Shown: piece after piece, positions 15,752 to 31,249 of the stretch
How positions within the stretch are numbered: position 1 is the stretch's first letter
Layout of the letters: each line of letters starts with the position of its first letter
Assembly (NCBI GenBank): GCA_022560555.1
Contig: JADFSZ010000002.1
Span: 1 to 32,000, forward strand
Source: PVC group bacterium
Lineage (GTDB): Bacteria > GCA-001730085 > JADFSZ01
Direction of reading: 5' to 3'
DNA length: 32,000 nt
The notes under the pieces: generated by a model
Databases searched by the model: none
The model's input: the letters and a program-made list of their open reading frames with translations, nothing else
What the model was told of the DNA's origin: nothing
Program-made: the position numbers and the translations under genes

Positions 15752-15781
15752 ACAAAAAAACCTTGCTTCCTTTGGGCAAGG
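15752..15781 (-). terminator. Rho-independent terminator ending the pilus operon / receiver gene
   Basis: Minus strand: CCTTGC-ccaaaggaa-GCAAGG (stem 15761-15766 / 15776-15781) followed directly by TTTTTTTGTG (15760-15751), about 55 nt after the receiver stop codon. Confidence 0.75.
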
Positions 15782-15833
15782 ATGGTCAAACACCTGGGTA
15801 ATCTGTCGACATCACAGAGTGTCTTTTTAATAT

Positions 15834-16208
15834 TTACACAGCCGGCCCGATATATTTATTAATCTTTTGAAGGAGGTCCTCCGGATCATACGGTTTGCTG
15901 AGATAATCATCGGCTCCGACTTTTTCGCCCAAATGCCGGTCCTCATCCGTTGATTTTGCCGAAGAAATGATGATCGGAATATGCTTATATTTCTCGTCAA
16001 ATTTTAATAAGCGGCACACCTCATATCCTTCCATCTTCGGCATCATGAGATCCAAGATGATCAGATCCGGGTTTTGTGATCTCGCTTTTTCCAGGCCTTC
16101 GGCTCCATCTGAAGCGGTCAACACCTCATAGCCTGACGCTTTAAGACGCATTGACAGGAGTTTTGTGATATTCGGTTCATCCTCCACAAACAGTATTTTT
16201 TTAGCCAT
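15834..16208 (-). CDS. Single-domain CheY-like response regulator (receiver only)
   Basis: 'KILFVEDEPN', phospho-acceptor context 'DLIILDLMMPKMEGYEV', 'IIISSAKS' and 'DYLSKP'. At 124 aa it has no output domain. The RBS is GAGGGG. Confidence 0.9.
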   Translation of the reverse strand: MAKKILFVEDEPNITKLLSMRLKASGYEVLTASDGAEGLEKARSQNPDLIILDLMMPKMEGYEVCRLLKFDEKYKHIPIIISSAKSTDEDRHLGEKVGADDYLSKPYDPEDLLQKINKYIGPAV

Positions 16209-16278
16209 TCTCTATTTCCCCTCATTCGATGTTGTTCATGTGCGCGTCATAGCATAGCCGTGAGTTCATTTCCCCCTC

Positions 16279-17541
16279 TCAGGGTCTAACAAATAAAGCG
16301 GCCCCCCGGGGCTCCATTTTGACAACTTCAAGATCTACGAGACCGCGTAAGAATACCACATTCTCTTTGCCCTTGTCAAAATCGTAGTCATACCGTCCGT
16401 CCGGACCTAAACTTAAAAAATTAAGCGGAATATCCGTCGTCAAATTCACATTCTCACTTAAGACAACGTGGCCCGGAGGATACTCGACCATGTATTTCGT
16501 GATCACAGGCGCGTCATGGTCATATCCTAAGGTGACTTGAATGCGCCACATACGCCCCGTCTCGGGTTTGGCCTCTAGAACAATCCGATCGCCGCTCTCA
16601 AAGGTTCGGATATTCGCTAGGCTAAAAACACGTATATGTTCTGAGTCCGGAATCCGGATCCGTGTTCCCTCGGCGATGAGCAAGCCCGACCCGGAACTCC
16701 GGGTATTTCGCATATGAACAAACGCTGTTCCTGTTTTTTGGGTTTGAATATCTTTTTCTTGAGCGTGTCCTATCGACGCGGTCACACTTACTTTGACGGC
16801 CGAAATATTGGGGATGTTTACTTTCAAAGGAGAGAGTTCCTGGTTCATGTTATTAAAATACTGAAAATGACATTGAGAAATTTTACCTCCCGAGGGCAGC
16901 CGCCCCGGAATCGATTGCGTCAGGCCCCGGTAGGTACGACTGAGACTATCATCTTTCCAGGAGAGTGTCATCGCGCAGTCCGGAAAATGTTCGGCATCCG
17001 GATGGAATATAAAACGAATGCGATCACCCGCGCGAACCGCCTGGGTGAGATAAACTTTATCATTCAGTTCCCGGGCGCGTTCTTTTTCCCCGGGCACAAA
17101 TGTCACCGGTATTTGAGACCATTTCTCTTTTCCGGATTCCGACACTTCTTCCAAGATTTCGGCAATCGGCGTAAAGCTTCCGGGTTTATACGGACGGTTG
17201 AGGATAAACGGTTTTTGTGCGGCCGTTCGAGACGATTGATGAACGAATGAAGGATCATGGGTCTCGTCCGTCCATAAAGGAACAAACCGAATGAAAGTTT
17301 CCCCAAGATCCAAAATTTCCAGAGAATCTTTGACGCCAAGATTGTCAAAACCTCCCTGAATGATTTCTTCGAGACAATCATCTATGGCTTTTTCGAGAAG
17401 GATCTCCTGTTGGCTATACGTGTAAGCGTCCAGGCTGGCTTGAAGCATATACAGCGTGACTCCCGTCAGCATGCCTGCGATCGCGATCGCGATCAAGAGC
17501 TCCAAGAGCGTTAGCCCTTTGTGGTTTAGCCGTTTGTCCAT
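16279..17541 (-). CDS. Large (420 aa) prepilin-type minor pseudopilin, PilW/GspJ-like with a C-terminal extension
   Basis: The ATG at 17541 has an AGAGGGG RBS 8 nt upstream. The leader is 'MDKRLNHKG|LTLLELLIAIAIAGMLTG' (Glu at +5). The later '...ISAVKVSVTASIG....TAFVHMRN' resembles PilW/GspJ minor pilins, followed by ~130 extra residues. The ORF-track TTG at 17598 overlaps the preceding gene. Confidence 0.75.
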   Translation of the reverse strand: MDKRLNHKGLTLLELLIAIAIAGMLTGVTLYMLQASLDAYTYSQQEILLEKAIDDCLEEIIQGGFDNLGVKDSLEILDLGETFIRFVPLWTDETHDPSFVHQSSRTAAQKPFILNRPYKPGSFTPIAEILEEVSESGKEKWSQIPVTFVPGEKERARELNDKVYLTQAVRAGDRIRFIFHPDAEHFPDCAMTLSWKDDSLSRTYRGLTQSIPGRLPSGGKISQCHFQYFNNMNQELSPLKVNIPNISAVKVSVTASIGHAQEKDIQTQKTGTAFVHMRNTRSSGSGLLIAEGTRIRIPDSEHIRVFSLANIRTFESGDRIVLEAKPETGRMWRIQVTLGYDHDAPVITKYMVEYPPGHVVLSENVNLTTDIPLNFLSLGPDGRYDYDFDKGKENVVFLRGLVDLEVVKMEPRGAALFVRP

Positions 17542-17563
17542 GCCGGACACCCCTCTTATTTTT

Positions 17564-18052
17564 TTATTCCACGCTGTTAAACCAATCCAGGTCTTCAATG
17601 AGTGTCACGGCTTGGGCTTCCGGGAGCCCCTCAGGTTCCGAAAGAGTCGCCTCTGTTAGCTGGTAAGCCAAAATGCGAACTTCCAGAGGATCTGTTTGAA
17701 GATCCACCGTTCTCTTTATACGCCAGTACTTTTTGTTCAGTGTAACGGGAGCCTCATCCAGGGGCGGATCCCAAACATCGCCTAAAGCTTTTAGTTGGGC
17801 CTCCGTAAGCCCCATGTTTTTAACTTTTTCCATTCCTTCCTGGATCAGATATCTGGCGGTAGTCAAGTCCTGATCCATAGACACTTGTTCCAAAGAAGCT
17901 GTAAACATGCGCATGAGAGGAACAAACACAATGGCAATTACGGCAAGCGTGATGAGAAGCTCGATGAATGTAAAACCCTTTTTAGTTCGGAGGGCAAAAC
18001 GCATTCTCTGTGATCTCTGTGTGCTCTGTGGTGAAGGTCTTAAAAAAGTCAT
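17564..18052 (-). CDS. Prepilin-type minor pseudopilin
   Basis: The class III signal is '...MRFALRTKKG|FTFIELLITLAVIAIVFVPL' (Glu +5). The ATG at 18052 overlaps the stop of the giant gene (ATGA) and gives a 26-aa leader. The alternative ATG at 18004 gives a 10-aa leader. Confidence 0.75.
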   Translation of the reverse strand: MTFLRPSPQSTQRSQRMRFALRTKKGFTFIELLITLAVIAIVFVPLMRMFTASLEQVSMDQDLTTARYLIQEGMEKVKNMGLTEAQLKALGDVWDPPLDEAPVTLNKKYWRIKRTVDLQTDPLEVRILAYQLTEATLSEPEGLPEAQAVTLIEDLDWFNSVE

Positions 18053-30009: not shown

Positions 30010-30877
30010 TGACCTCCTGGGTCAGGGCCCAATAATCTTTGGCCCCTTGGGATGTCCGGGCATATAGATGAATGGGCTTTTTATAAATCGGGGCTTCACA
30101 GAGTTTGACATTGTAATGAATAGGGGTCCGGAAAACCAAGTCCTTGAAGTAGTTTTGAATTTGATCTAACACGCGGTGGCTGACCTTGGTTCTTTTATCA
30201 AAGAGTGTCGCGAGGATCCCGAGAATCTTCACGTCAAAATTGAGCCGTTCTTTCACAATATCGATGGTGGAAAACAGCTCTTTCATCCCCTCTAAAGAAT
30301 AATAATGCGTTTGGACGGGGATAATCACGTAATCGGCCGCGACGATGGCATTCAGGGTCACGAGATTCAGACTCGGGGAGCAATCGATTAGTGTATATTG
30401 GTATTTTTTACGAAGGCGCAATTTGTGAATCGCGATCCTGAGGATGGATTCTCTTCCCAGGACTGTTGCCAGCTCTAATTGAGCATCGGCGAGAGAGACG
30501 TTGGCCGAAGCGATATCCAGATTTTTGACGGATGTTTTTTGAATCACATCTTCAAGTCCCGCATTGTTGATCAGCACATCATACGTTGATTTTTCTGTCT
30601 GTTCGATGTCGACCCCGAGGCCAAGCGACGCGTGGGCCTGAGCATCAAGATCAATCAGGAGAACCCGGTATCCTTTCTCGGCCAGACAAGACGAGAGATT
30701 GATAGCCGTCGTTGTTTTGCTGCATCCTCCTTTTTGATTACAGATGGCGATGCAAATTTGTTGAGTTGTCGATATAGGGACATCATTTTTGGAATTCAAT
30801 GAGGTGGGCTGGTTTTGGACACGTTCTTCTTTCAGGGCTTTATCTCGCGAAAAACTATTTTTGAATTGATCAAACAT
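29912..30877 (-). CDS. ParA/MinD-family P-loop ATPase (orphan, first gene of the pilus operon)
   Basis: Deviant Walker A 'IAICNQKGGCSKTTTAINLSSCLA', 'VLLIDLDAQAHAS' and Walker B-like 'YTLIDCSPSL'. A ~45-aa unstructured-looking N-terminal extension is present. The RBS GAGGGGG precedes the ATG at 30877. No ParB-like gene is present in the window. Confidence 0.88.
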   Translation of the reverse strand: MFDQFKNSFSRDKALKEERVQNQPTSLNSKNDVPISTTQQICIAICNQKGGCSKTTTAINLSSCLAEKGYRVLLIDLDAQAHASLGLGVDIEQTEKSTYDVLINNAGLEDVIQKTSVKNLDIASANVSLADAQLELATVLGRESILRIAIHKLRLRKKYQYTLIDCSPSLNLVTLNAIVAADYVIIPVQTHYYSLEGMKELFSTIDIVKERLNFDVKILGILATLFDKRTKVSHRVLDQIQNYFKDLVFRTPIHYNVKLCEAPIYKKPIHLYARTSQGAKDYWALTQEVIERTLAKDPQCSQNVNHLPVSESLGAGIETIS

Positions 30878-30980
30878 GTTGTTCCCCCTCTTTTACAGTA
30901 AACTTTCGGTTAAACAGGTTTTCCATTCGAACTTTATCTGCCAGATAATTGAAAATTCTTTAACGATGTTCATATGTGAC

Positions 30981-31150
30981 TCCCCATATCTGGAACCCAA
31001 AATATCTCGTGCCTGGATTTCGAGAAGCGCAGTTCCTCCCCATCTCTGGAACCCAAAATATCTCGTGTCAGGATTTCGTAGATCGAAGAGCTACGAAATT
31101 CCTGACCTCCCGAACCAGCTACCCAATTACCTCGTGCATAATTTTCGATG
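30981..31150. repeat. Tandem 42-nt direct repeats (56-nt period) plus a degenerate third copy in the pilus-operon leader
   Basis: Copies at 30981-31022 (tccccatatctggaacccaaaatatctcgtgcctggatttcg) and 31037-31078 (tccccatctctggaacccaaaatatctcgtgtcaggatttcg) match at 39 of 42 positions. A third copy at ~31108-31147 keeps the cores ACCCAA / CTCGTG / TTTCG with a 1-nt spacing change. Confidence 0.9.
31067..31106. promoter_or_regulatory. Long inverted repeat / hairpin overlapping repeat copy 2
   Basis: gtcaggatttcgtag (31067-31081), loop atcgaagag, then ctacgaaattcctgac (31091-31106). This gives 15 bp with one bulged base. It could be an RNA hairpin in the leader or a palindromic DNA operator (TTTCGTAG-N9-CTACGAAA). 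Confidence 0.7.
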
Positions 31151-31170
31151 AGCTTGACTCATCGGAAACT

Positions 31171-31196
31171 AAGGCCTTATCGGAAAGCCAGGCCTT
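31171..31196. other. Short hairpin near the predicted 5' end of the leader
   Basis: AAGGCCT (31171-31177), a 12-nt loop (tatcggaaagcc), then AGGCCTT (31190-31196). Confidence 0.5.
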
Positions 31197-31220
31197 GCTG
31201 GTATAGCTTACAGTAATTTA

Positions 31221-31249
31221 ATTTTAGTTTGCAAGCCTTTGCTTGTCAA
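31221..31249 (-). promoter_or_regulatory. Near-consensus sigma70 promoter for the pilus operon
   Basis: Minus strand: TTGACA (31249-31244), exactly 17 nt, then TAAAAT (31226-31221). The predicted TSS at ~31214 gives a ~335-nt leader before the ParA-like ATG (30877). Confidence 0.55.

Follow-up and report, generated by a model that had tools for sequence, protein, structure and literature searches.

A conserved operon with the components of a type IVa pilus-class machine, a ParA-like ATPase, and a large adhesin-like protein in a PVC group bacterium

What kind of machine is encoded by a block of pilus genes that opens with a ParA-like ATPase, closes with a CheY-like receiver, and carries the gene for a very large secreted protein in between? 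Such a block lies on the minus strand of the first 32,000 nucleotides of contig JADFSZ010000002.1 (PVC group bacterium, assembly GCA_022560555.1), the 32-kb stretch referred to here as the window. A reading of this DNA made without database searches (the sequence-only reading) had described the block as one transcription unit for a complete pilus machine with nonstandard accessories, an attachment module rather than a textbook type IV pilus. The explanation that we favor, with somewhat more confidence than doubt, is that the block encodes the form that a filament machine of the type IVa pilus (T4aP) class takes in Omnitrophota, where it is inherited as a single operon, tipped with an adhesin, and positioned or licensed by its ParA-like ATPase.

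The block consists of 13 open reading frames (ORFs) read in the same direction from 30877 down to 15834, which from first to last are as follows (lengths in amino acids [aa]; HR, homology region; TPR, tetratricopeptide repeat; c-di-GMP, cyclic di-GMP):

29912-30877, minus strand: ParA/Soj-like ATPase, 321 aa, the first gene (AAA_31, 192 bits; CbiA)
28705-29937, minus strand: PilM, 410 aa (PilM_2 [PF11104], 92 bits; TIGR01175, 108 bits)
28118-28708, minus strand: PilN, 196 aa (PF05137, 54.5 bits), in ATGA overlap with the PilM gene
27234-28121, minus strand: PilO with a C-terminal HR-type beta domain, 295 aa (PilO PF04350, 32.5 bits)
25559-27214, minus strand: secretin with N0, one N1, the core, and a C-terminal TPR/YbgF-BamD-like extension (Secretin, 171 bits; Secretin_N; STN)
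24339-25562, minus strand: PilC/GspF platform protein, 407 aa (two T2SSF domains, 209 bits)
23806-24288, minus strand: major pilin, 160 aa, G/FTLIELL, no cysteines (N_methyl, 35 bits; T2SSG, 21.4 bits)
23430-23828, minus strand: small membrane-anchored PilX_N-like protein, ~132 aa (orthologues 52 to 60% identical, 37% in L019)
21680-23386, minus strand: extension ATPase of the PilB type with MshEN at its N terminus, 568 aa (T2SSE, 458 bits; MshEN PF05157, 78 bits)
18049-21633, minus strand: Sec-exported protein of 1194 aa with a signal peptide and no Pfam match (the giant protein)
17564-18052, minus strand: minor pilin of 162 aa (mp162), G/FTFIELL (N_methyl, 31 bits), in ATGA overlap with the giant gene
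16279-17541, minus strand: large minor pilin of 420 aa (mp420), G/LTLLELL (N_methyl, 26 bits)
15834-16208, minus strand: single-domain CheY-like receiver, 124 aa, the last gene (Response_reg, 104 bits)

Domains were assigned with the Pfam and NCBIfam hidden Markov models; among the accessory pilin-like proteins, NCBIfam covered the 132-aa ORF only. Start codons were reset by comparison with orthologues, and all gap figures use the reset starts. PilM begins at the GTG at 29937, behind a GGAG ribosome-binding site and with a 26-nucleotide (nt) overlap with the ParA gene, and not at the TTG at 30009; the secretin probably begins at the ATG at 27214; an ORF of 174 aa becomes the ~132-aa gene, with a start near 23828; and an ORF of 439 aa becomes the 420-aa pilin, with its start at the ATG at 17541 and a product identical to NCBI protein P0121 ("PVC group bacterium").

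Coding sequence accounts for 14,859 of the 15,044 bases of the block, the junctions span -26 to +70 nt, and four junctions are overlaps on the coding strand: ATGA at 28705-28708, GTGA at 28118-28121, TTGA at 25559-25562, and ATGA at 18049-18052. All 13 ORFs were found at the positions given by the sequence-only reading, and its description of the packing (gaps of 70 nt or less and four overlaps) holds, with the third overlap reading TTGA. The 13 genes are thus one tightly packed operon, probably expressed as a single transcript, and two signals bracket it:

31221-31249, minus strand: sigma-70-like promoter-like site, TTGACA-17-TAAAAT
15752-15781, minus strand: intrinsic-terminator-like hairpin, CCTTGC-9 nt-GCAAGG followed by T7, read by eye

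The putative promoter matches 11 of the 12 consensus positions and is the best such site of the region, as previously described; promoter-like sites overall are not in excess (25, versus 21 +/- 4.5 in shuffled sequences). The hairpin was skipped by the terminator scanner, its 9-nt loop exceeding the limit of 8 nt, and the scan returned no other terminator-like match in the intergenic gaps of the block, which agrees with the earlier description of this hairpin as the only one there.

Whether the ParA-like ATPase, the giant protein, and the CheY-like receiver belong to the machine or are chance neighbors of an ordinary pil operon can be judged from related contigs and loci (given L numbers here). 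The named ones among them are Candidatus Omnitrophota, as are all named relatives of the closest matches of the giant protein and those of the ParA-like ATPase and mp420. Scans with an alignment of the giant protein, using patterns drawn from its C-terminal half, gave five loci in genome contigs and seven in metagenome contigs, several of them contig ends. Three ParA homologues of 54 to 64% identity, picked without knowledge of their neighbors, supplied L017, L018, and L019, which stop inside or just before the large gene that follows PilB. The whole order from ParA to the 420-aa pilin is kept in L002 and L009, at protein identities of 30 to 65%, and also in L017, L018, and L019 as far as those contigs reach; L019 shows a variant in which PilM and PilN are fused (612 aa, 10908-12746) and an mp162 homologue precedes PilB. 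Partial order is visible in L001, L003, L004, L007, L010, and L012 to L015. The flanking genes are different in every locus, indicating that the block moves as a unit.

A ParA gene heads the operon in all six loci whose upstream side is visible, including the three sampled blindly, and PilM is the following gene in six of six; the PilM gene overlaps the 3' end of the ParA gene in all loci. At the other end, a large gene comes after PilB in the eight loci that extend that far and is in each of them a homologue of the giant gene, with one small gene separating it from PilB in L001 and L018. The placements claimed by the sequence-only reading, ParA first and the giant gene between pilB and the minor pilins, therefore recur across relatives, which refutes chance juxtaposition for these two genes. 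A related suggestion is that the first gene encodes a chromosome-partition ATPase: its product is most similar to genuine chromosomal ParA/Soj proteins, with M. xanthus ParA (8RAY, 213 bits) as its best match in the PDB. The overlap with PilM in six of six loci whose flanks otherwise differ, and the lack of a ParB gene in the window or in the six loci, speak against it. (For this genome, statements on ParB, PilD, and PilT cover the window.) As a whole, the idea of accidental neighbors or of a partition ATPase is very improbable. On gene order, it is refuted for ParA and the giant protein and applies to the CheY gene only, and the ParA-like ATPase and the large modular adhesin-like protein with its pilin partners are integral, conserved parts of the operon.

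The position of the CheY gene is more variable. A CheY homologue follows the large pilin in the same direction in L001 (33% identity) and L004 (65%), so that its place as the last gene is reproduced there. In L002, five single-domain receivers, interleaved with two histidine kinases, lie downstream in convergent orientation, and the nearest is the closest relative of the receiver in the window (55% identity); synteny of this gene is thus only partial.

The identities of the core components, proposed earlier from the sequence, were upheld by the domain models: PilM, PilN, PilO, secretin, PilC, PilB, and pilin are all recognized, giving a T4aP-like core. PilM, PilN, and PilO are separate genes, each scoring above its Pfam cutoff, and the PilN N terminus (MRRINLI) matches the PilM-binding INLL motif. 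The secretin scores 247 bits as PilQ (TIGR02515; cutoff, 284), 229 as GspD (cutoff, 351), and 136 as MshL (cutoff, 250). PilB likewise scores higher as a T4aP ATPase (TIGR02538, 602 bits; cutoff, 676) than as GspE (560 bits), matches TadA only weakly (62 bits), and aligns over its full length with the PilB/PilF proteins of Thermus, Geobacter, and Myxococcus in the PDB. In the same database the major pilin is nearest to Geobacter PilA-N (42 bits) and Myxococcus PilA (37 bits), followed by GspG (21 bits). The machine therefore shares with the T4aP of Myxococcus, Pseudomonas, and Thermus its PilB ATPase, PilC, PilM with the PilN N-terminal motif, and PilO, as well as a secretin with N0 and a single N1 domain and a T4a-like pilin with a G/F...E5 signal.

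Two domain fusions, both real and conserved in relatives, set the machine apart from that model. The first had been read as PilO-PilP. The PilO domain is detected in seven of seven orthologues, but the PilP model (PF04351) matched the C-terminal domain in none of these seven, and a separate PilP gene is present in none of the loci examined. Residues 238 to 284 instead match CdsD_C (29.6 bits, above cutoff), orthologues match T2SSB (four of seven) and T2SSC (one of seven), and the domain carries a conserved motif, RNPF...GI..G..PTAIIN.EVYRVGD; a sequence search of the PDB returned nothing useful. On these matches the extension is best called HR-type and is presumably secretin binding. In the second fusion, secretin residues 472 to 552 match TPR_6, YfiO, and YbgF, and this extension is kept in orthologues. 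The operon thus differs from model T4aP systems in having an HR domain fused to PilO, which may take the place of PilP, and a TPR fused to the secretin in place of a separate PilF/PilW/Tgl pilotin; it also lacks AMIN domains, carries all of its genes in one operon with a ParA-like first gene, has no PilT or PilD in the locus, and, besides a PilX_N-like protein, encodes no more than two canonical minor pilins.

The last of these differences also revises the three minor pilins counted earlier, of which those of 162 and 420 aa are of the prepilin type, while the third, of ~132 aa, lacks a canonical prepilin motif. Its PilX_N matches are weak (E = 0.04 to 0.075 in two orthologues and a precomputed "weak" match in L017), and its gene shares 23 nt with the end of the pilin gene, an overlap also seen in L002.

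If domain homology is a guide, PilB would power polymerization of the T4a-like pilin on the PilC platform, and PilM, PilN, and PilO would make up the alignment complex of the inner membrane. In place of PilP, the HR extension of PilO would reach the N0 domain of the secretin, whose TPR extension may substitute for a separate TPR pilotin or cell wall anchor.

The same components can be read as a type II secretion system (T2SS)-like machine, in which a short pseudopilus piston pushes the giant protein through the secretin and no long pilus is made. Several observations lean in this direction and weigh against a T4aP-class assignment. A PilT retraction ATPase is encoded neither in the window nor beside the operon in relatives. 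The platform protein scores better as GspF (364 bits) than as Thermus PilC (334 bits), both under the equivalog cutoffs, PilO also matches GspM/T2SSM, and the HR domain matches GspB/GspC models. The PilM-PilN fusion of L019 has the architecture of GspL. The major pilin barely passes the T2SSG cutoff (21.4 versus 21 bits) and is without the disulfide loop of many T4a pilins, and the 420-aa protein is named "type II secretion system protein" at NCBI. To these likenesses can be added homologues of the E, F, D, and G components of a GspC-M system and a possible cargo gene in the operon, and T2SS-like loci beside giant genes are reported for Omnitrophota in a preprint (bioRxiv 10.1101/2023.11.21.568195).

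Other findings also count against the favored reading. Every equivalog-level NCBIfam score falls under its cutoff, indicating that the system is divergent, and there is no PilD prepilin peptidase in the window, so that prepilin processing, like retraction, would depend on genes outside it. The sequence-only reading had noted that both PilD and PilT are missing from the window, and their absence makes its description of the machine as complete an overstatement. In the MshEN domain of PilB, the consensus Arg is missing from the first motif, and in the second motif of this copy Lys replaces Arg and Gln replaces Gly. Finally, a promoter-like sequence at 16350-16379 (TTGACA-18-TATTCT, extended -10 TG), in the 3' end of the 420-aa pilin gene and upstream of the CheY gene, may give the latter its own transcript.

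Other features nevertheless oppose a T2SS. Here and in most relatives, three separate genes encode PilM, PilN, and PilO; a single N1 domain, and not N1 to N3, is found in the secretin, which scores slightly better as PilQ than as GspD; the ATPase scores slightly better as PilB than as GspE and aligns over its full length with T4aP PilB; the HR protein has no PDZ domain; and the N-terminal half of the pilin is nearest to T4a pilins. There is no GspH, GspI, GspJ, or GspK: the 132-, 162-, and 420-aa proteins have no Pfam match beyond N_methyl, and NCBIfam, applied to the 132-aa ORF only, gave nothing. Weak matches to GspH, GspI, and GspJ, all below cutoff, occur over the N-terminal helix of the major pilin. 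The locus in the preprint contains rcpC and a peptidyl-prolyl isomerase (PPIase) gene, and neither is present here. We doubt the secretion piston without dismissing it, and conclude that, on its components, the machine is probably of the T4aP class, with an architecture that leans toward the boundary between T4aP and T2SS.

Two further filament systems share single features with the locus. The mannose-sensitive hemagglutinin (MSHA) pilus has an N-terminal MshEN motif on its assembly ATPase, as here, but the MshL score of the secretin is far below those for PilQ and GspD, no other Msh model gave a match, no genes of the MshI, MshJ, or MshK type are present, and PilM, PilN, and PilO are. The components of a Tad pilus were not found, there being no TadZ_N domain, a weak TadA score, and a platform of the PilC/GspF type.

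In the T4aP-class machine that we favor, the ParA-like ATPase would act on assembly. The protein retains an intact deviant Walker A motif, KGGCSKT, and has no TadZ_N domain. It resembles TadZ/CpaE of Tad systems and the orphan ParA positioners PpfA, ParC, PomZ, and McdA in being a ParA/MinD ATPase encoded with an envelope machine, which it presumably positions, and in its intact deviant Walker A. It differs in lacking the TadZ N-terminal receiver-like domain, in being nearest in sequence to chromosomal ParA/Soj, in its association with a T4aP-class machine and not a Tad machine, and in its proposed partner peptide on PilM. With chromosomal ParABS it shares a ParA with the deviant Walker A, but it has no adjacent ParB gene.

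The candidate partner peptide, DIVxxIF..KKKxSxLF, lies at the N terminus of PilM ahead of a variable linker and is kept in six of six orthologues; textbook PilM is without it. ParB, PomX, TlpT, and McdB address their ParA partners through short peptides. By analogy, we infer that the PilM peptide may be the contact point for ParA, through which the ATPase would position or license assembly of the machine, although the role of the peptide is speculative. A limited search of the literature turned up no precedent for a ParA-like gene within such an operon.

The other nonstandard component, the giant protein, gave an AlphaFold 2 (AF2) model with a mean predicted local distance difference test score (pLDDT) of 78.5, exceeding 90 over residues 30 to 500. 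The model contains a beta-helix at ~30 to 500, a variable and poorly predicted region at 510 to 646, and a string of immunoglobulin (Ig)- or macroglobulin (MG)-like beta-sandwiches at 650 to 1160, followed by a flexible tail that ends in a conserved terminal strand, ...YREIP. Foldseek matches (contactin, the MG domains of C3/alpha-2-macroglobulin, titin, SbsC, and GhpA, at E values of ~1e-10) are generic Ig/MG strings only. Widely distributed in other phyla, the N-terminal beta-helix is joined there to other C-terminal domains such as type IX secretion system (T9SS) sorting domains, and the C-terminal half is the system-specific part of the protein.

The giant gene is associated with those of the two minor pilins. 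The order giant gene, mp162, mp420 is conserved, with overlapping codons, and mp162 orthologues (50 to 61% identical) directly follow the giant gene in most loci. The AF2 model of mp420 (pLDDT, 87) consists of a 55-residue pilin helix and an all-beta head that has no significant Foldseek match in the PDB (best E value, 0.018; TM-score, ~0.1), so that a GspK-like or ComZ-like fold cannot be claimed for it. Sequence searches of the PDB with the giant protein and mp420 gave a generic pilin helix or nothing useful. The mp420 family is a small one: 1.84 billion proteins contained 55 clusters of it at 90% identity, and 67 representatives had E values of 1e-30 or less. In the complete Omnitrophota genome CP070780.1 (L016, 7659-11215), a gene for a 787-aa protein homologous to the giant C-terminal half extends into the start of an mp420 homologue; other large genes precede the pair, and no pil genes lie within 10 kb. 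The giant C-terminal half and the mp420 family thus appear to be a conserved pair even away from pil genes.

In model T4aP systems, the fimU-pilVWXY1E locus similarly encodes a large Sec-exported nonpilin, PilY1, beside minor pilins, and this parallel underlies the reading of the giant protein as a tip adhesin, although its beta-helix and Ig string differ from the beta-propeller of PilY1. Synteny, translational coupling, and predicted structure suggest that the giant protein is exported by Sec and passed to the filament via mp162, mp420, and the PilX_N-like protein. It would then play the role of PilY1 and the minor pilins, yielding an adhesin-tipped fiber for attachment to surfaces or to host or prey cells. 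A more specific version, that ParA recognizes the PilM peptide and thereby places, counts, or licenses the pilus and that mp420 docks the giant C-terminal half as a new tip module, is possible and is offered tentatively.

Avd-like proteins accompany diversity-generating retroelements. In L001, a gene for a 23S_rRNA_IVP/bAvd-like four-helix bundle (13625-13984) lies between the giant gene and the minor pilin gene, and in protein P0158, from another relative, the large pilin itself (528 aa) includes such a domain as a fusion. No reverse transcriptase gene was visible nearby.

Signaling domains recur within and around the operon. The N-terminal MshEN domain of PilB, overlooked when pilB itself was correctly recognized by the sequence-only reading, is a predicted c-di-GMP binder: the c-di-GMP motif NF053729 scores 63 bits (cutoff, 38), and the motif is kept in seven orthologues. 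Just upstream of the promoter are at least two tandem receivers:

31277-31675, minus strand: CheY-like receiver (Response_reg, 93 bits)
31676-31936, minus strand: further receiver fragment (Response_reg, 54 bits)

Receiver, histidine kinase, or GGDEF genes flank the operon in L002, L017, L018, and L019. The flanking receivers, the GGDEF, PilZ, and Che genes of relatives, and the MshEN domain suggest that two-component phosphorelays and c-di-GMP probably control the machine. In L002, a third kinase and then a receiver-GGDEF-HD protein come after the block of receivers. In L001, the pilin gene is followed by an insertion of two PilZ genes (6490-7326), and the operon, at 16078-23379, by a CheY-CheC-CheA-CheC...CheR cluster, a 715-aa PilM-like protein, and ComFB.

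The last of these genes touches on another possible function. Competence in Thermus, Vibrio, and Acinetobacter depends on machines of the T4aP class, and a gene for a ComEA-like DNA receptor (SLBB and HHH_3 domains) lies at 11213-11818, ~4 kb downstream of the operon, which together with the ComFB gene near the L001 locus would fit a DNA uptake pilus of the T4aP type. The ComEA gene is seen in the flanks of no related locus, so that its adjacency is not conserved; neither ComEC nor DprA is encoded in the window; and the conserved partner, an adhesin-like protein of 1,000 to 1,900 aa, is unneeded by a competence pilus. Competence is improbable and, with ComEA not syntenic in relatives, is set aside as the principal reading.

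Elsewhere in the window are housekeeping genes (enolase, alanine racemase, a Mur ligase, accD, purA, and others). A carbamoyltransferase gene at 12280-14093 is split into two ORFs in different frames, with the break between 13404 and 13440, which points to a frameshift, an error of assembly, or a pseudogene.

Between the putative promoter and the first gene is a leader:

30878-31220, minus strand: leader of ~340 nt between the promoter and the ParA gene, with three direct-repeat copies

The three copies, of 32 to 56 nt, lie at 30980-31153 and share the core CACGAGATATTTTGGGTTCCAGA; a 24-mer is present twice in the leader where none is expected. Folding of the leader RNA is more stable than that of shuffled sequences (z = -2.66), and neither a whole-window search nor a sensitive search of the leader found an Rfam family. 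The repeat-bearing leader may be an operator array or a structured leader. In relatives, a MerR/HTH_17 gene of 75 to 80 aa lies immediately upstream of the ParA gene (L002, 574-807; L017, 9757-9984; L019, 9743-9985); it is absent from L018, and no such gene or degraded remnant was found in the 340-nt leader of the window.

Parts of this picture are already reported: Omnitrophota are known to carry T4aP clusters, and pilus or secretion loci that have PilZ genes in their vicinity have been described next to giant genes. TXSScan assigned T4aP clusters to 135 of the 141 Velamenicoccia genomes and to most of the remaining Omnitrophota, and attachment or epibiotic predation was proposed for them (PMC10066038); those clusters may include this type of locus. 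As the published clusters are classed as ordinary T4aP (PMC10066038), the claim that the machine is something other than a textbook T4P gives way to one of a probable variant of a textbook class. The giant-gene loci of West-Roberts et al. (preprint, 2023) and Seymour et al. (2023) resemble this one in phylum, in combining a machine with a very large adhesin-like protein, and in PilZ/c-di-GMP signaling. The locus in the preprint has gspD/E/F with rcpC and a PPIase gene, upstream of genes of more than 25 kb. Here, the large gene is 3 to 6 kb and lies inside a PilMNO-type operon without rcpC and the PPIase. The ParA-like gene and the 420-aa pilin are not mentioned in the available parts of either work. 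No published description was found of the coupling of ParA to PilM with a conserved PilM peptide, of the fused HR and TPR domains, or of the pairing of the giant C-terminal half with mp420 or the mp420 fold.

Omnitrophota are uncultured, mostly ultrasmall, and suspected to be epibionts or predators, which makes their pili prime candidates for host contact. A T4aP-class operon of the phylum is now defined gene by gene, with concrete candidates for the factors that position the machine and make it adhere. It offers an example of a streamlined T4aP that is architecturally between T4aP and T2SS, through its PilO-HR and secretin-TPR proteins and, in one relative, a PilM-PilN fusion. If the proposed role of ParA is correct, the operon would encode a ParA-cargo system with the basal body of a T4aP as its cargo, in ultrasmall cells. 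If that of the tip proteins is correct, a lineage-specific mp420 head with no solved analogue would dock a modular beta-helix/Ig adhesin; neither arrangement is known to have been described for type IV pili. The fiber would then be an adhesin-tipped tether with which Omnitrophota capture their hosts or prey.

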